Shown here: piece after piece, positions 3,711 to 13,243 of the stretch | How positions within the stretch are numbered: position 1 is the first letter of the stretch | Layout of the letters: every line of letters starts with the position of its first letter | Assembly: GCA_043820105.1 (NCBI GenBank) | Contig: JBDREC010000088.1 | Location: 1-64,000, forward strand | DNA: 64,000 bases | Direction of reading: 5' to 3' | Source of the DNA: Pseudomonadota bacterium | GTDB lineage: Bacteria > Bdellovibrionota_F > JAHFAK01 > JBDREC01 | Made by a program: the position numbers and the translations under genes | Notes under the pieces: model-generated | Told to the model about the DNA's origin: nothing | Databases searched by the model: none | The model's input: the letters and a program-made list of their open reading frames with translations, nothing else

Positions 3711-5024
3711 ATGAAAAGAAATATTTTAAATAAACTTATAAACTGGAAGAACTCACAAAATAGAAAACCTATTCTATTAAAGGGAGCAAGACAGGTTGGG
3801 AAAACATACATTATCAAAGAATTTGGTAAAACCAATTTTGAAAATGTTCATTATTTTGATTTTATGAAAAATAAAAAGTTATGTGACTCCTTTTTAGACA
3901 CCCTTAATCCAGATCAAATATTATTAAATCTTGAACTGCAAAATAAAATCAAAATTGATATAAATAAGGATTTAATAGTTTTTGATGAGATTCAGGAATG
4001 TGAAAAAGCAATAAGTAGTTTAAAGTATTTTTATGAAACTTATCCAGGTGCTTTCATTATTGGATCAGGTTCATTTTTAGGATTGTCATTGGGGACAAGT
4101 TCATTTCCAGTTGGAAAAGTTGAAAAATTAAACCTCTATCCTATGAGTTTTTTTGAATTCTTGGAAGGCATTGATAATGAAAAAATATTAAATTTAATGA
4201 CTGATGGGTATGTTAATAACAAAATCTCTAAAGTGCTTCATGATGAAGTATTAATTTATTTAAAATATTACATAATAACTGGTGGTTTGCCTGAAGTTGT
4301 ATCGACATTTCATGAAAATTCAAATGATTTACAACTTGCGTTTGCTAAAGTTAGGGAACTTCAAAAATCTTTATTATTTGATTATGAAGCAGATATTAGC
4401 AAGCATTCTGGAAAATCAAATGCTGTTAAGATATTATCCGTTTTTAATAATGTGCCATTACAGCTGGCTAGAGAAAATAAGCAAAATAAAAAATTTATAT
4501 TCAAAAATATTTTGCCCAAAAACTCCAATTATTCAAACCTGGAAGATCCAATTAGCTGGTTAACAAAAGCTGGCCTGATTCATAAAATATCAATCTGCAA
4601 AAGAGCGGTAGAGCCTCTTAAGGCTTATACAGAAGAGAATAGATTTAATTTATTTATGTTTGATATTGGAATACTTGGAGCTATGCTTGATTTGGATCCC
4701 ATAAGTATTTTTAAATCTACCTATAAAGAATATAAAGGGTATATTTTTGAAAATTTCGTTATCCAAGAGCTTGTTTCCAGTCAAAAGTTTGATTTTTATA
4801 GCTGGAAAGAAGGAACTAGTGAAATTGAAATTTTAGCAAGAACAGAAAGTGGCATTACACCAATTGAAGTAAAATCAGGATTAAACACAAAAGCAAAAAG
4901 TCTAAAAGTTTTTGTTGAAAAATATGCTCCTCAAAAAAGATATTTATTATCACCTTTGAATATCAAGAAATGTGACTCTGGTATGGTTTTTTTACCTATT
5001 TATTGTGCTTCACTTATTCAATAA
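3711..5024 (+). CDS. AAA-family ATPase with DUF4143-type C-terminus
   Basis: GARQVGKT Walker A, VFDEIQ Walker B, GGLPE, FDIGIL and PIEVKSG motifs. Confidence 0.9.
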   Translation: MKRNILNKLINWKNSQNRKPILLKGARQVGKTYIIKEFGKTNFENVHYFDFMKNKKLCDSFLDTLNPDQILLNLELQNKIKIDINKDLIVFDEIQECEKAISSLKYFYETYPGAFIIGSGSFLGLSLGTSSFPVGKVEKLNLYPMSFFEFLEGIDNEKILNLMTDGYVNNKISKVLHDEVLIYLKYYIITGGLPEVVSTFHENSNDLQLAFAKVRELQKSLLFDYEADISKHSGKSNAVKILSVFNNVPLQLARENKQNKKFIFKNILPKNSNYSNLEDPISWLTKAGLIHKISICKRAVEPLKAYTEENRFNLFMFDIGILGAMLDLDPISIFKSTYKEYKGYIFENFVIQELVSSQKFDFYSWKEGTSEIEILARTESGITPIEVKSGLNTKAKSLKVFVEKYAPQKRYLLSPLNIKKCDSGMVFLPIYCASLIQ

Positions 5025-5094: not shown

Positions 5095-7008
5095 TTAAAA
5101 AGAACCAAGTTCAATGCAGCTCAGATTATCTCCCATTTCACCTGTCTGATCACCAATGTTTTCAGAAGCAGCCAGCCCTTGACCAAGTTCGCCAGAGCTA
5201 TTATTTCCCCAGCATTTTACACAATCTTCATCTATTAAAACGCAGGTGTGCTCGCTTCCAAGGGAAATTTCACTGGCTGTCAGATCATAGCCAAGACTAA
5301 CAGCTGACAAATTGCTTCCCATTTCGGAGGCTTCGTCTCCTATTGTTTCACTGTTTTCGTATCCTAGCCTTCCATAGGTTCCAATTCCCCAGCATTTTAC
5401 TCGACCAACAGATGTAAGCGTGCATACATGGTCATTTCCACAGGAAATTGCTGTTGCATATGTATTATTTCCAAGATCTACATTTGAACTGCCTGAAGGG
5501 TCATTTATATCAGTTGTATTTTCATAGCCAAGATTTCCATCATTTCTCCCCCAACATTTAATTCCGTTACCACTTAATAAAGCACAGGAAAATTGATTTC
5601 CAGTGCACATGTCCATTGGAATTTTATTTGCATCCCCAAGGTTTATTGCAGTGAAACTGTCTGATGCATCATCTCCTATTGGGTTACCAGTGCTATTATA
5701 ACCGCACTGTCCATATTCATTATTGCCCCAGCACTTTATTTCCTTGCCATTAATATCTTTCAAAAGTGCACAAACATGATTTGTGCCTGCGTCCATTTTT
5801 AAAACTTCAAAATAGCTGCCTATTTCAACAAAGGGTAAATTATTTCCCATTTCTGAAGTGCTGTCACCTCTATCTTGAGTATCTTTTAAGCCTAAGACGC
5901 CATTAGTGTTTTGCCCCCAGCATTTAATTCCCGCTGAAAAATCAGAGGTTTTATATCCATAGGCGCAGGAAAAACTGCCTCCTACTGTAATTCCTTGAGC
6001 TAGAAAGTTCATTCCAAGGTCAACGGCAACTATTGTCGCATTATCAATTAATTCAGAACCAGTTCTTCCAAGCACTGCGTTTTCAGCCAAGCCCCAGCAA
6101 TAAACAATGTTGCCAGTGCTTAAAGCGCAAGCATGTGTTTCTTGTATATCCATTTGAGTTATTTCAAAATTATCCAAATCAATTGGGAGCAGGCTTATCC
6201 CCATTTGTGAAGACGAAGTGCCTATATCTGAAGTGCCTGAGTTTCCCAGCAGATCACTATCTCCCCAGCATTTTACTATGCCATTTTGTATGACACATGA
6301 ATTATCACCACCTGCAAATAATTTCATTTCATCTGATGACTCATCATCACTTGTGCTTGTGGATTCTGAAATACCTTCTGTTTCTGTGGTGTCAATAAAA
6401 CTGATTAGTTGATTATTTGATGAATTGTAAACCAGGGTTCCAAAATCTAAATCCACATCACTTGAAGCTTTAAGTAAATTTGTGCCATTTTTATCTTTAA
6501 TGGAAATTTTTTCTGCATCCACACAGTCCAGGCTTGAAAGAGTTGTTAGTGTACTTGAAGCTTCAATGCAATTTGCAATTCCAGGAACTATCCAGATTGA
6601 AAAAGTCAGGTCTGCAGAAATTTCAGCACTAACATCTATTGTATTATTTGATATTTGTGCAAGGCCAATAATCTCAGAATTATCTTCATCAACGATCATT
6701 GCCATAAATAGATAATCTGAGGAGCTATTTTTTATCCTGGAAATAGTTTTTTTCGATTTATTGACTATTTCAGATACTGGCACCCCAACAGGAGATATAA
6801 TTTCATCGCTTGTTATTAGATCACTTGTGTCAATGGTGGCAGAATTGCTTAGAAGCATATCAATATCGATTGTGGCTAGAATATTAATTTCATAATTATC
6901 ATTATTTTGAGTTTGATCAGTATTGCTGTCATTGTTATTAAAGTTGCAGGAGTAGAATGATAATACAATAAAAACATAAAGAAGAAATCTTAATGGTTTT
7001 GTTTTCAT
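5095..7008 (-). CDS. Lipoprotein with RCC1-like beta-propeller repeats
   Basis: Lipobox FYSC; repeated HxCAL...VKCWGxNxxGxLG units. Confidence 0.9.
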   Translation of the reverse strand: MKTKPLRFLLYVFIVLSFYSCNFNNNDSNTDQTQNNDNYEINILATIDIDMLLSNSATIDTSDLITSDEIISPVGVPVSEIVNKSKKTISRIKNSSSDYLFMAMIVDEDNSEIIGLAQISNNTIDVSAEISADLTFSIWIVPGIANCIEASSTLTTLSSLDCVDAEKISIKDKNGTNLLKASSDVDLDFGTLVYNSSNNQLISFIDTTETEGISESTSTSDDESSDEMKLFAGGDNSCVIQNGIVKCWGDSDLLGNSGTSDIGTSSSQMGISLLPIDLDNFEITQMDIQETHACALSTGNIVYCWGLAENAVLGRTGSELIDNATIVAVDLGMNFLAQGITVGGSFSCAYGYKTSDFSAGIKCWGQNTNGVLGLKDTQDRGDSTSEMGNNLPFVEIGSYFEVLKMDAGTNHVCALLKDINGKEIKCWGNNEYGQCGYNSTGNPIGDDASDSFTAINLGDANKIPMDMCTGNQFSCALLSGNGIKCWGRNDGNLGYENTTDINDPSGSSNVDLGNNTYATAISCGNDHVCTLTSVGRVKCWGIGTYGRLGYENSETIGDEASEMGSNLSAVSLGYDLTASEISLGSEHTCVLIDEDCVKCWGNNSSGELGQGLAASENIGDQTGEMGDNLSCIELGSF

Positions 7009-7396
7009 ATTCCTTATCAGTCTTTTGAGTAAATTACCTTTAGCCTAGCATAGCTTTATAGAAAAGTAAATTATTTATTATTGAAATAGGCCATGTTATT
7101 TTAAAAGCACCGAGAAGGACAATATTTAGAGATTTGTTTTAATTTACACGGGCTTGCAACAAACACTTATTGTCTTGTTAAGTTAAATATGCTATGAATT
7201 TGCAGCCTTTTGTCACAAGCAAGGCCTATCAAGACACAATCCCTGCGCTGGGCGTTAACACTTTAATAATAAAAAGGAAATATAGCTAACGGCTATTAGA
7301 AAAGCATTTATTTAACTTAATAATGTTGAGTTTTTTGTTTTTTTTGTTAAGCTATTAAAATTATAATCATTATTAATTAATTAATGAGTTTAAAAA

Positions 7397-10300
7397 ATGA
7401 AAGAAAAATTAGATGCTTTTTTTGCTTCATTAAACAAAGGCAAAAAAAAGTATTCAGCTCATACAATTGAACAATATAAAAAAAAGCTTAATGATTTATT
7501 TGAATTTTGTGGCTATAAAGATGAATTTGACTTAGCTGACCTCGATGCATTTATCAATGATTTAAAAGCTAAAAATCATTCAAATTCTATTATTAACTTA
7601 TACATTTCAGCAATTAAAACCTTTTATAATTTTATTAATAAAAGATATAAAACCGAAAATCTAGGCAAAAAAATAAAAAACGAGAAAATTCGAAAGACTT
7701 TAAAGCTTGAAGATACAGATATTTTAAAGTTTTTACATAACATTAAAGATTTAGAAGATCCTAATAGGGGGATTTTCTATTTATATATCTTGTTTGGATT
7801 TAGCACCTCATTTATATCTAAATTAACTAAAGAAGATGTTGAAATTTTAGAGTGTAAAATAGGAATAAAAACAGATAAAAAACAATTTGAGTATTTTTCG
7901 TTAAATAATAGTGAATTTAAAGAGGTAATCAGGGCTTGTCTTGTGAATTTATGCGAAAATTCTCAAAATTATTTATTTGAAACCAAAAAGGGCACCTGTC
8001 TTTCAAAGCCCCATTTTAAATATCTGTTTAATAAATTTAAAAAATATTTACCTTTAGATTGCGATTCAATTATAAGATTAAAGGCAGATAATTTAATGCT
8101 TATAAAAGAAAATATACTTGATGGTTCATTGGTAAAATTATTATCTAAAAAACTAAAGATAAACAGGCTAATTTCAAAAAATGATATGACGGCTATTTAT
8201 GTTGCCTATAATATCCCAGAAAAAATGCCCGTTATTTTAAAAATCTTAAATAAGGATAAACAAAGCAAGGTCACAATTGACCAATTTAAACACGAGTTTT
8301 TAAATCTTAAAAAAGTCTCACATCCTTTGGTTCCAAAAGCATATGACTTTGAGTATCTAAAAGAAATAGACAGCTATTGTTTTACAATGGAATATTTTGA
8401 TTTTGAAAGTCTATCAAAATATGAAAAGAAAATATCTAATAAAGATATTGCCTTTATTCTTTACTATATGCTTGAGCTTCTTGAGCATCTTAAAAAAACA
8501 GGAATAAGCCACAATGATATTAATCCAAATAATATTTTATTTAAAAAAGACAGTGACAATAAGCTGCATTTGAAATTACTTGATTTTGGACTATCAAAAG
8601 CCAGCAAAGAGTTTAGTGTAGGAGGCACATTTTTATATATGCCACCTGAAATGATTATTGAAAAGCAAATGTCTCCTTCTTTGGATTTATATTCATTGGG
8701 TATTACAGCGTATTATCTTATTTCAGGAAAGTTTCCCTTTAGCGTGAAAAGCTTTGATGCATATCTTGAGGATATTAGAAAAGATAATTATATTTCCATA
8801 AGTAAATATAACAAAAATATATCCCTGAATTTTGAAAAAATTATATCTAAAATGACAGCCTTTGATCATGAAAAAAGGTACTCTTCGGCAAAAGAAGCTT
8901 TAGAGGACATCGAGAATTTAATTAAAATAGAGTTTTTAAATGATGATATTTTAAATGATCAAATCTCTCTTTCTTATGCAAATTTCATTGGAAGAAACAA
9001 GGAACTTTCAATATTAAAAAATAATTTTAGTATTGTTTATTCAGATATTTTAAAAACAAAGGAAATTAAATCATTTTTAATAAGTGGAGAAAAAGGTATT
9101 GGTAAAAAAAGACTAATAAACGAAATAGAAGTTTTAGCAAATTTAAACTGTATAGAATTAATTAAAGTTGATATCTCTAATAAAGATTTTTTAAATGAAA
9201 TTGTAGAGATTTGTCATAAGAAAAGAAAGCTCAAAAAAGAAGATACTAATATTGAATCAGAAGATGTAAATATTATAAAATCATCTCTGCTAAAAAAACT
9301 AGCTGTTTCTTTTTGTGATATTTTCAAGAATCAAAAGACTCTTCTTATTGTTGAAAACTTAGAGTGCCTGGACAAAACAGGCTTAACATTCTTTAAATTC
9401 TATTTAGATGAGCTTGTAAAAATTAGACTGTCATTAATGCTTTTGTTTTCACAGAATATTGACATATCGAGGGAAAATCCGAATATTTATAAGCTAAAGG
9501 AGTCAACTTCAATACACACAGGCTTTGAAGAAATTTGCCTGACAAATTTTTGCATGGCAAAAAGCCTTGATTTTATTTCTTCTATCTTAAACAGAGCCGT
9601 TTCTCCTGATTTTGTGGACTTTGTGTTTTCTTCTACAAATGGTAATCCACATTATATTATCTCATTGCTCTCTTATTTGCGAGATAGGGCCTTCTTGTAT
9701 ACAAAGAACCAGGTTGTAATGTTGAAAAAACATGCAATCGATATTCCTCCAAATATTCTAGAATTAACTTCTTCGAGGCTAGAGAGATTATCGCAAATAC
9801 AAAAAATAATTTTATTTATATTTACAGAGTTTAACAAGGAATTGAAAGTAGATATGTTGTTTTCAGTGTTATTAGAAACAAAACACAGTTTGCCTTTAGT
9901 TGATTTGATTGTGCACCTTAAGCAGCTTGTATCTGTAAATTTTATTAAAATAGTAAATAAAAAAGATGTTTTGTATAAGGAAAATATTAACGAAAATTCA
10001 ATCCTCAATCTTTCTGATCAGTTAATCAGTAATCAGATTCAAAAGCATATTTCGAAAAATAATTTAAAAGATATATCTTTGGCACTTTCAAATACAATGG
10101 AAGATTATTTAATAAAAGATAGTTCGTATAAAAAAGTCGCTGCTAGAAATTTACATAAAACAGGTCAAAACCAGAAGGCCTTTGATTTATATATTGAAAT
10201 CGCTGACGATTATTTGAAAAATAACATGATTGATTTAGCAGAAGATTATTACGAAAAAGCAACTTCTGCAAAGGAAATATTTGAAGGCGGTGAAAGCTGT

Positions 10301-13243
10301 ATATTTAATTATGCTAAGATTAAATTTCTTTTAAATAAATACGAAGAGGCTTTGGGCATTTATAATGCATTTTATGATAGATTGGAAAACAAGCCTGTTC
10401 AGGCAAAAGTATTGAAATTCATCGCTCAAATAAAAACAAAACAAGGCAATTATGAGGAGGGAATCAGGATATACGAACAAGCAATTTCTCTTTTAAGCGA
10501 TGAAAAACCAGACATGATGTCTGTAGAGATTAATTTACTTAAATTGACGGCCTTAATGAGTTTATCGCGATTCCAAGAATGTAAAGATATAATAAATAGG
10601 CTTAACGAGCTTAAAGAAATTGATATAAAATTACAGGCCAAGTTATATAACCTTGCTGGTCTTGTTAGTTATTATGAAGGCGAGCTTGAGCAAGCCAAGT
10701 CGAATCTTTTGTTAGCAATTGATTTGTCTGAGCGTTGTAATAGCATAAATGAGCAAATAGGAAGCATAAGCAACCTGGGTCTTGTTTATTTTGCACAAAA
10801 AAAATACCTAAAATCAATCAATTGCCACCAAAAAGCCTTGGAAATATGTGAAAATAATTTTATTGTTTTTATAAAAGCTCAACAATTAATAAACTTAGGA
10901 AATTGTTATTTAGAAACTGGCGGTTTGTCTAAGGCCATAGAAACATATGAAGAAGCGTATTCAATTTTTTCAAGCCTTAATTTTCCAAAGCAAAGTGAAG
11001 TGATTACTTTTAATGTTGCTTTAGTCTATTCTGAAATCGGCAGTTTTGATAAAAGCGAATTCTTTATTAACAAGTCCTTAGATTTATCTATTAAAAGAAA
11101 TAATAAACTTATGCAGGCTTATAATTATACCTTGTTAGCAAATCTTAATGCTTATAAGTATGATTATATCAAGGCCAGCAGCTATTTTAAAGAAAGCATT
11201 AAGATATTCAAAGAAATAAACGATAAAACTGGACTTGGCGAAACATATTTAAATATCGCAGATTCTAAGATCAGACTTGATGAATCAAGTGACCTTAACT
11301 ATTATATACAGGAAGCTAATAGTTTAGCCGCTAACAATCCTAACATTAGACTCTTTGCTATTTTATTAAAGGCAAGCGACCACTTAGATTCAAATAGTTT
11401 TAGCGAATGCAAGAACTTATTAGATTCCATAGAAAATACTGATATTGAGGATTATAGTTATTTTATTAAAATAAGATTCTATAAAATTTTTGCCTCTTAT
11501 TACTTTAAAATAAATAATAATGAAAAACTTAGCGTCTATAGTGATAAACTGAGAAATACACTGAGTGAATTATTGGAAAATATTCCAGCCACAAATAAAT
11601 TTAATTTTAAAAATCATTTTAAATTTATAGATGCCTTTCAATTTTTAAAAAATCTAGAGTATAACAAAAACGATGATACAAGTTCTTTTAAGCTTGAAAT
11701 GTTATATGAACTAACATCTGAGTTGTTGTTTGAAAAATCTCTGGAAAAACTGCTTGATTCAATTTTGGATAAGGCAATATTAATTTCAAATGCAAAGCGT
11801 GGATTTATTTTTTTAAAAAAGGATGAAAATGAAAACCTACAGCTTGCAAACAGCGACTACATTGTTGTTGCTGCAAGAAAAATAAATCAGGAGGAAATAG
11901 GAAAAACTTCTTTTAAACTTAGTTTATCAATACTTGAAAAAATGAAAAAGGAAAACAAGGTTTTAATTATTGATAATGCTCTGGAAACTTTTGATAAATC
12001 TTATAGCATACAGGATGCGAAATTACGCAGTATAGCTGTTTTTCCTGTTGTAGAAAAGGAATCAATTATTGGAGCGATATATTTAGATGATCCAGGCAAA
12101 GTTGATGCCTTTAAGGATATTGATGAAAAATTAATATCTACTTTATCAAAACATATTTCACTTGCGATTTCTCATGCAAGATTTTTGAATGGTTTAGAAA
12201 GTCAAAACAAGAATATCCTAAATGTAAATAAAAATTTGTCAGCCAGGCTAAATAACTTTGAGCAAAGAGAAGTACAGCTTTCAAAAATATTGGACTTTCA
12301 AAAAAACAAAGAAGAAGAAAAATATAATTATAAAAATATAATTACCAAAAGCCCTAAAATGCTGGAGATTTTCCAAACGCTGCAAAAAATACGAACTACT
12401 AATATTAATGTTTTGCTATTAGGAGCAACTGGTGTTGGAAAAGAGCTTATCGCTAGAGCCATTCACTTTAAAGGAGATAGAAAAGACAAGCCCTTTATCG
12501 CTGTTAATTGTGGAGCTTTTACAGAAAGCTTAATTGAAAGTGAATTGTTTGGTCATATTAAAGGAGCTTTTACGGGAGCTGATAACAATAAAGATGGAAT
12601 ATTTGAAGTGGCAAAGGGTGGCACCGTATTTTTAGATGAAATTGGAGAAATGTCTCTGGAGACTCAAAAAAAACTTTTAAGGGTACTGCAAAATAGGGTT
12701 ATAAAAAAAGTTGGAGATACAAAGTTTGTTGACATTGATGTAAGAATAGTTGCAGCTACAAATGTAAATTTACTAAAGAGTGTACAAAAAGGTACCTTTA
12801 GACATGACCTTTATTATAGAATAAATTCAATGGAAATTGTTATTCCGTCATTAAAAGATCGCATTGAAGACATCCCACTCCTTGTTGAACATTTCGTTAA
12901 TAAGTTTGATCCAAATAAGAAAATAGACCCAAAGCTTATTGAAGTATTTATGAATTATGATTGGCCGGGAAATGTTCGAGAACTTGAAAATGAAGTGCAT
13001 AAACTGGTTGTTTTTTCTGAAGGTGATATTCTCAAGAAATCTTTACTACAAAATAATTCTAAATTTTTTATTAATAAACAAGAAATAAAAATAAAAACTA
13101 TTGCTGAAATGGAAAAAGATCTGATTATTAAAGCTTTAAAAGAAACTTTGAATAATAAATCTAAAGCAGCCAAAACTCTTGGTATTGATAGAAGGACTTT
13201 GGATCAAAGAATTAAAAAATATCATTTAACTTTTCATTCTTGA
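7397..13243 (+). CDS. Multidomain sigma-54 activator: degenerate tyrosine-recombinase-like N-terminus, Ser/Thr kinase, STAND-type ATPase, TPR, GAF, bEBP AAA+ and Fis-HTH
   Basis: YSAHTIEQY...SAIKTFYNF (integrase SAM-like); [20 protein letters not shown] (kinase); [15 protein letters not shown] (ATPase); TPR helices; GAIYLD (GAF); [48 protein letters not shown] (HTH). Confidence 0.9.

Follow-up and report, generated by a model that had tools for sequence, protein, structure and literature searches.

Within the window, as we call the whole 64,000-nucleotide stretch of DNA analyzed here (contig C88 of a host genome of 3.8 Mb in 113 contigs, 92.9% complete), the open reading frame at 7397-13243 on the forward strand encodes P0001, a protein of 1948 aa. 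Its residues 1-235 are a module derived from a tyrosine recombinase, made of the whole core-binding (CB) domain and the first two-thirds of the catalytic (CAT) domain. The frame continues without interruption through kinase, STAND NTPase, TPR, GAF, sigma-54 AAA+ and DNA-binding parts (Table 1), and because an in-frame stop lies directly upstream, the ATG that opens it is the earliest possible start of the protein. The module has lost the ability to cut or rejoin DNA, and we infer, at about even chances, that it works as a non-catalytic DNA clamp or bender that would give the activator a second DNA anchor.

Recombinase ancestry and loss of catalysis

The protein has eight paralogs in the host genome, P0001 being counted among them, as well as one outside homolog, P0154, and two divergent relatives, P0268 and P0269. 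In all of these proteins, the Pfam family of the CB domain (PF02899) scored over its cut-off. For P0001, the Pfam scan did not report the catalytic family PF00589; it was found in part in three paralogs, at profile positions 3-121 (P0008), 10-119 and 6-119 of 172, and wherever it was found, the coverage ended at profile position 119-135. A profile of the eight modules was compared with the PDB sequences, and it matched XerA (4a8e) with an E-value of 1.9e-9 along profile positions 4-201, and E. coli XerD (1a0p) with an E-value of 4.9e-4. Both alignments set the GLRVSEL motif against G-L-s-x-x-x-i in the module. Among the PDB sequences, chain 9i5v_14, of 401 aa and labeled 'Ribosome-associated translation inhibitor RaiA', matched the CB profile at residues 7-92 with an E-value of 0.0026; the chain either has an odd label or places a SAM-like domain in a ribosome-bound protein.

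The AlphaFold2 model of residues 1-268, generated with an alignment of eight sequences, had a mean predicted local distance difference test (pLDDT) score of 85.8 and a predicted template modeling (pTM) score of 0.59. When this model was analyzed with Foldseek, the 36 rows listed were all tyrosine recombinases, with a probability of 1.00, and included XerA, Cre, lambda Int, XerD, Tn1549 Int and Brujita Int. The structural comparison with VIA aligned 227 residues of the model with lambda Int, with Z 13.2 and a root-mean-square deviation (rmsd) of 4.6, placing residues 1-235 on chain positions 76-319, and set residues 2-234 on positions 20-299 of Cre. The CB domain was modeled as four helices with pLDDT ~90, and its structure matches in VIA had Z 11.3-12.8 and rmsd 1.8-3.6 overall; isolated CB domains gave rmsd 1.8-2.0, and for two of them, 3nrw and 2oxo, the values were Z 12.8 with rmsd 1.9 and Z 11.7 with rmsd 1.8, respectively. 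Moreover, residues 101-230 fell on the topoisomerase IB core (6z01, Z 10.8; 2h7g, Z 9.4), and residues 102-247 matched the C-terminal domain of XerD. The original prediction, made from the letters and their translation, had read the N-terminus as a recombinase-derived domain without its catalytic residues, and three independent lines, Pfam, the sequence profile and the structure, all agreed with it. The four peptides that it quoted are present in the translation, at aa 19-27, 62-79, 123-148 and 192-203, and the structural match to tyrosine recombinases that it had named as a check was obtained with AlphaFold2 and Foldseek in all rows listed.

The catalytic columns were analyzed in an alignment of the 11 modules with nine true recombinases, of which the host genome supplied three and the global search six; R, HxxR, LGH and Y are present in every one of the nine. 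The Arg I position was kept in none of the 11 modules: it was occupied by S/N/N/S/N/S/K/K in the eight paralogs, by N in P0154, and by S in P0268 and P0269. In this alignment, the HxxR (HxLRH), LGH and Tyr segments were absent from every module. Where the Tyr-bearing helices are expected, the chain enters a poorly conserved linker helix (aa 236-262) and then the kinase. In agreement, the model exits the recombinase fold at about residue 235, and the structural alignments stop at Cre 299 and lambda Int 319, short of Cre W315/Y324 and lambda H333 (residue numbers from Table 3 in the available part of PMC10516654). The modules do have two invariant tyrosines, Y27 and Y209, but these sit elsewhere in the fold than the catalytic Tyr. 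At the beta2-beta3 hairpin (GKGxKxR), no GKG signature was found; there are Lys residues nearby, but this region is Lys-rich and poorly aligned. Without Arg I, without the HxxR and H/W motifs and without the C-terminal helices that bear the Tyr, the module is unable to cut or rejoin DNA. The term 'catalytically degenerate' used in the original prediction was therefore right about the replaced Arg I and the absent HxxR/Tyr region and fell short in one respect, since the fold is truncated, which goes beyond mere mutation.

A residual DNA enzyme activity, nicking or topoisomerase-like, at a non-canonical active site could be proposed from the match of the truncated CAT domain to the topoisomerase IB core and from a basic residue at P0001 position 229. 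This position lies in the last helix of the module and is K or R in 10 of the 11 modules; it may descend from Arg II or from the Arg of the next helix, a point on which the sequence and structural alignments disagree. With Arg I conserved in no module, HxxR, H/W and the Tyr helix missing, and no conserved Tyr in an equivalent place, we regard such an activity as very improbable.

Conservation, distribution and origin of the fusion

Eight co-linear genes with the module at the N-terminus were found on seven contigs of the host genome, in open frames of 1670-1993 aa. The modules of the other paralogs are 32-41% identical to that of P0001 by tblastn and 33-39% in the alignment, and paralogs of such divergence are neither strain variants nor the outcome of one mis-join. 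The outside homolog, P0154, of 1957 aa, is a singleton encoded on an unrelated 7125-bp JGI/IMG contig, and it is co-linear with all eight paralogs, with 30-34% identity along the protein and 26-37% in the module. Its composition is visibly poorer in Lys than that of the paralogs, and its automatic JGI name already contains 'site-specific recombinase XerD'. The original prediction had advised a search for the same architecture in other genomes, and P0154 provides it.

The two divergent relatives, P0268 and P0269, come from the two genomes of the same order and have ~1017 aa, with a divergent module at the head (E about 1e-16) in which PF00589 covers profile positions 7-135 of 172. In the remaining ~770 aa, no Pfam hit and no sigma-54 or HTH domain was found. 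These proteins may be decayed cousins of the module-bearing activator family. The BLAST alignment of P0268 and P0269 to P0003 extends into the first kinase strands. In the ESM Atlas, the best score of the C-terminal part of P0268 was 0.77, to AAA/TPR clusters, and this is a lead only.

With eight co-linear copies in uninterrupted frames, the fusion to a kinase-STAND-TPR-GAF-sigma-54 activator is genuine, as originally proposed, and its presence in eight paralogs, one outside homolog and two divergent relatives means that it is conserved and no accident. The public reads were uninformative on this point: positions 6800-7036, 8145-8427 and 8412-8622 were covered by short pieces at low depth, and no piece spanned 7900-8200 (three DNA runs from a single groundwater-metagenome study, whose word shares were 0.20, 0.13 and 0.00; no RNA run was listed). 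This poor coverage of the junction would leave room for an assembly chimera or a gene-calling artefact, an explanation that is hardly credible when eight diverged copies on seven contigs have the same domain order, the same architecture is found on an independent JGI contig, the linker is conserved, and there is no stop or frame change.

The analysis of mean pairwise identity among the paralogs gave 34% for the CB domain and 39% for the catalytic remnant; the kinase had 42%, GAF had 38%, and the STAND NTPase and TPR regions had 29% each. The linker between the module and the kinase, with 29%, was among the least conserved segments. The identity of the module is thus on par with that of the kinase and GAF domains, suggesting that it is as constrained as domains presumed to be working. 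The loss of another domain in one paralog is in line with this. P0004 (G000:C54:14626-19611, minus strand, 1661 aa) has lost the kinase and has the module joined straight to the STAND NTPase, indicating that the module is not merely a kinase accessory. P0156 (G000:C108, 1119 aa) has only the TPR, GAF, sigma-54 and HTH parts, and since it nests inside the module-bearing clade, its front end was lost secondarily.

An exhaustive profile search against 1.84 billion cluster representatives generated five matches below 1e-30, and all of them were host-genome proteins. The next-best score fell from 331 to 94 bits and belonged to ordinary recombinases. Among the 150 matches listed, none was longer than 818 aa except for the five host-genome proteins, and the best non-self matches among the representatives listed were mainly recombinases of ~200-320 aa with no more than 94 bits. 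This search missed P0154, so members inside 50%-identity clusters can hide, and 'rare' is a safer word than 'unique'. Word-indexed protein searches with the module gave P0001 alone, or P0001 and P0006, and as they missed known paralogs, they are weak on rarity. The P0154 module had no relative in the metagenome or genome contig collections. The phylum is represented in the collection by four species genomes; both of those of the same order hold the divergent module, and none was found in the genome of the same class, which is 86% complete. The global search also detected P0009, P0010, P0011, P0023, P0049 and P0071, recombinases of 517-818 aa in which one complete catalytic domain is preceded by two or more tandem SAM-like core-binding domains.

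The core without the module is widespread. With residues 256 to the end of P0003 as the query, 1740 proteins at E <=0.001 were found among 7999 candidates scored, and many of them had ~1650-1850 aa, 100% of the query aligned, 25-30% identity, and the same kinase-AAA_16-TPR-GAF-sigma-54-HTH_8 families. The named sources include Planctomycetes, Acidobacteriota, TA06, Zixiibacteriota, Myxococcota and 'Deltaproteobacteria'. Fusions of kinase, ATPase, TPR, GAF and bacterial enhancer-binding protein (bEBP) parts had been placed in myxobacteria and relatives; they do exist in Myxococcota, but they range well beyond myxobacteria. Among the 120 rows listed, PF02899 was found only in host-genome proteins and P0154, and the five module-less relatives that were fetched all begin directly at the kinase. 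In a quick maximum-likelihood tree, whose careful search is unfinished, the module-bearing proteins formed one clade against these five relatives, with a support of 100 in the Shimodaira-Hasegawa-like approximate likelihood ratio test, and P0154 was the sister of the eight paralogs. Given that the core occurs widely without the module and then opens with the kinase, the module is a single addition made in a small lineage. One gain at the N-terminus and a later eight-fold expansion of paralogs make up the simplest history. The true Xer-type recombinases of the host genome are separate from this family, in three open frames of 302-312 aa with PF00589 scores of 126-171 bits.

A proposed DNA anchor and the alternatives

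In the function that we favor, the CB domain and the basic linker, together with the half of the CAT domain that bears the sheet, would form the C-shaped clamp of a recombinase, and this clamp would hold, and probably bend, a specific DNA site. A second anchor would thereby be placed at the end of the protein opposite the C-terminal Fis-type HTH_8 domain, and it could help to select or bridge enhancer sites or could place the kinase on DNA. The charge of the module is compatible with such contacts: in the eight paralogs, it has an isoelectric point (pI) of 9.2-9.6 and a net charge of +10 to +18, and the rest of the protein has a pI of 6.0-9.0. The position of P0001 K74 is basic in all 11 modules, and the columns of K74 and of residue 229 are also basic in the true recombinases. 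Moreover, the predicted pose of the two domains was similar to those of DNA-bound lambda Int (rmsd 4.5-4.7) and Cre (~4.8), with rmsd values of 11.6-13.8 for apo XerD and XerA, as compared with VIA. MrpR, SroF and TnsF, described below, serve as precedents, each a DNA binder that no longer recombines, and the sigma-54 machinery of the host genome also counts in favor of this reading.

Several observations weigh against a DNA anchor. Only eight sequences underlie the model that shows the clamp-like pose, its pTM is modest, and the pose may be an echo of DNA-bound training structures. Several columns that are basic in true recombinases are otherwise in the modules, three of them being basic in only 0, 2 and 1 of the 11, and in real recombinases, the third of the catalytic domain that is missing here makes DNA contacts too (XerH; available text of PMC10293859). 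The activator already has HTH_8, and a second DNA-binding domain is not required; the high pI is partly expected in a Lys-rich genome of 30% G+C. In the DNA itself, the repeats found in 7009-7396 were only short AT-rich pairs of the kind expected by chance, and the best 9-mer shared near the eight loci was present in four of them against 0.16 expected, which is unconvincing given the number of words.

Alternatively, the module may work off DNA, as a protein-protein or intramolecular regulator that holds the kinase or STAND part inactive, docks a partner or aids oligomerization. The loss of the DNA-contacting C-terminal third and of all phosphate-binding catalytic residues would be explained by such a role, as would the lack of a DNA motif shared near the eight loci. 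In P0268 and P0269, the module is followed by another kind of region, of ~770 aa, in which neither a sigma-54 nor an HTH domain was detected, so the module needs no adjacent transcription output, and N-terminal domains of STAND and bEBP proteins are often regulatory. However, P0004 retains the module after the loss of the kinase, and the module still has its two recombinase lobes and its basic linker, with the basic charge found in all eight paralogs. Characterized dead recombinases, namely MrpR and TnsF, bind DNA, as described in the available parts of PMC10516654 and PMC10293859. We consider the protein-interaction role possible, if somewhat doubtful.

The original prediction had proposed another use of DNA contacts, in which the module senses the state of the DNA, such as dif-like sites, junctions or foreign DNA, and the signal would pass to the kinase and the sigma-54 ATPase. 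The same basic charge and clamp-like model that suggest an anchor would serve a sensor as well, and tyrosine recombinases recognize bent and junction DNA. Sensing in STAND proteins, however, is usually a task of the repeats at the C-terminus, with effector or targeting functions placed at the N-terminal end; for this reason, we rate a DNA anchor above a DNA sensor. Moreover, the TPR and GAF regions already provide inputs, eight modules that have diverged to 33-41% identity are more suggestive of as many site specificities than of a single generic DNA signal, the genuine Xer recombinases are separate in the genome, and the neighborhoods of the paralogs contain nothing that indicates defense or repair. 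A sensor is, consequently, an unlikely function for this module.

Returning to the DNA anchor, a more far-reaching version of it would make these proteins a new class of activator with DNA grips at both ends. The N-terminal clamp would recognize and bend its own site and would take over enhancer selection or the looping of the type performed by IHF, and the eight modules would stand for eight specificities and eight regulons. This version is put forward tentatively, as we think that it is rather unlikely to hold in full.

Signaling parts, gene surroundings and related systems

In the seven kinase-bearing paralogs and P0154, the beta3 Lys, the HxD Asp, the Asn and the DFG are kept (kinase N-lobe and catalytic loop, window 8160-8560 in P0001). 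The Gly-rich loop GxGxxG has degenerated in P0001, P0007, P0008 and P0154, and P0002, P0003 and P0006 retain part of it; judged by its motifs, the kinase is possibly atypical or weak. The Lys of HRDxKPxN is Asn in most copies. The AAA_16 family, under its cut-off of 32.6 bits in P0001 (Table 1), passed it in P0003, P0005 and P0007 with 37.0, 38.9 and 46.7 bits; the STAND Walker A of P0001 is GEKGIGKK. The TPR repeats of P0001 span ~aa 940-1260 by Pfam, and TPR_MalT was weak in this protein, with 28 bits against a cut-off of 45, compared to 57.9, 58.5 and 50.3 bits in paralogs.

The sigma-54 AAA+ domain of P0001 has Walker A, Walker B and GAFTGA, and it is followed by the C-terminal HTH_8. Among the paralogs, the canonical GAFTGA (window 12530-12600) was observed only in P0001; the other seven and P0154 have GAFTDA, GSFTDA or GAYTDA, with Gly changed to Asp at position 5. 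The five module-less relatives have GAFTGA or GSFTGA. The host genome has rpoN, with a DNA-binding domain of 211 bits, and 31 Sigma54_activat (PF00158) hits in 3.8 Mb, eight of which belong to the module-bearing family. With a -24/-12 consensus, 282 sites with 10 or 11 of the 11 consensus positions were counted in the genome, compared to 28 in the shuffled genome.

Table 1. Coordinates of the parts of P0001 in the window, of its upstream neighbor, and of the genes for the divergent relatives.
Feature	Position	Strand	Residues and details
Core-binding (SAM-like) domain of the module	7397..7681	+	aa 1-95
Phage_int_SAM_1 (PF02899)			aa 6-80; E 4.8e-9, 36.8 bits vs cut-off 22.3
Basic linker and truncated catalytic-domain remnant	7682..8101	+	aa 96-235; Ser136 at Arg I
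Linker helix, module to kinase	8102..8182	+	aa 236-262; model helix 238-263, pLDDT falling
Hanks-type Ser/Thr kinase	8183..8911	+	aa 263-505; PF00069 at 266-503, E 8.3e-37
STAND-type NTPase (AAA_16-like)	8984..9412	+	aa 530-672; 21.9 bits, under cut-off 32.6
TPR (MalT-like) region	10187..11596	+	~aa 931-1400; TPR_12 E 4e-26, 7 stretches
GAF domain	11735..12169	+	aa 1447-1591; GAF_2 E 9.3e-10, GAF E 7.5e-7
Sigma-54 AAA+ domain with lid	12338..13057	+	aa 1648-1887; GAFTGA loop intact
Sigma54_activat (PF00158)			aa 1648-1814; E 2.4e-69
AAA_lid_14			aa 1821-1887; E 1e-18
Fis-type HTH_8 DNA-binding domain	13100..13222	+	aa 1902-1942; PF02954 E 3.6e-14
Divergent upstream neighbor, RCC1-like repeat protein	5095..7008	-	637 aa; PF25390, RCC1_2
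P0268 and P0269 genes	G001:C44 (L040:4124-7180), G002:C23 (L041:2934-5978)	+ (both)	

The G+C content around the P0001 gene is ~30%. Each of the eight paralogs has an upstream neighbor of 450-640 aa, either divergent or co-directional. Five of these neighbors have domains of repeat or lectin type (RCC1-like, TSP_3, and Laminin_G_3 three times), and the other three had no Pfam hit. The neighbors may be the regulated genes, with the RCC1-like gene upstream of P0001 as a possible target. Two of the upstream neighbors are clearly related to each other (E 1e-43). No conserved operon was found around the eight paralogs. Sigma-54-like sites were present within a few kb of each paralog, yet they are abundant genome-wide, and no site scoring at least 8 of 11 was found in 7009-7396. 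The analysis of 6800-7600 with Rfam gave no match. Within it, positions 7130-7260 are locally richer in G+C than the AT-rich surroundings, with neither an Rfam match nor a sigma-54-like site. Other genes of the window include 1258-2517 on the minus strand, encoding a 419-aa protein with a MopE-type metal-binding motif and an RHS repeat, and 3711-5024 on the plus strand, encoding a 437-aa AAA_14/DUF4143 ATPase. Nearby frames of 283, 380, 544, 205 and 382 aa had no Pfam hit.

The closest sequence relatives of the module are XerC, XerD and XerA, which share with it the CB domain, the linker and the beta-sheet part of the CAT domain; the Xer-type proteins differ in retaining Arg I, HxxR, H/W, Tyr and the C-terminal helices. 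In its proposed use, the module is closer to MrpR (YopR, of phage SPbeta) and SroF (of phi3T), where a recombinase fold without catalysis likewise serves gene regulation. According to the accessible text of PMC10516654, MrpR is a DNA-binding repressor with a recombinase fold that has lost recombination, and the portion available of bioRxiv 10.1101/2025.11.27.690993 describes SroF as binding DNA via an integrase-like fold. The module model matched the MrpR/SroF structures 9rd5, 9rgl and 8a0a in VIA with Z 9.9, 9.3 and 8.4, respectively. As far as these sources go, both are stand-alone, full-length phage repressors of ~320 aa with the Lys and Tyr still there, whereas the module is truncated before the Tyr helices and is one domain of a 1948-aa cellular activator, with its DNA binding predicted.

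By description only, TnsF of the Tn6022-like Tn7 transposons is also alike: in the available part of PMC10293859, it is a DNA target selector with an inactivated recombinase domain that lacks the Tyr chamber, is fused to other domains, and recognizes and probably bends DNA. It differs, in that same text, in being a transposon target selector with N-terminal zinc fingers and no kinase, STAND or sigma-54 parts. Crypton-derived eukaryotic genes (DUF3504), likened once again by description from the accessible part of PMC3212892, have recombinase domains in regulatory proteins and are of independent origin. From the other side, the giant kinase-STAND-TPR-GAF-sigma-54-HTH_8 activators, annotated as 'PknK' or 'sigma 54-interacting transcriptional regulator', have the same core, and the five that were fetched lack the module. 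Dead-recombinase parts and sigma-54 activators are thus both known, and their combination is new. The original prediction knew of no fusion with a recombinase module, and full-text literature searches, with the listings scanned, likewise turned up no account in which a domain derived from a recombinase sits on a sigma-54 activator or a kinase-STAND protein.

Few cases of dead tyrosine recombinases used as DNA-recognition parts have been described (MrpR, SroF and TnsF), and if the DNA anchor is true, the module would be the first one inside a cellular signaling and transcription machine. Its truncation shows how little of the recombinase fold survives. As the phylum is poorly sampled, with four species genomes, the family may exceed the present count. 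For protein evolution, it offers a clean case in which the module was gained once, went through an eight-fold expansion, and stayed in place when other domains were lost, and for sigma-54 biology it would, if the reading is true, provide a testable activator with two unrelated DNA-binding ends.

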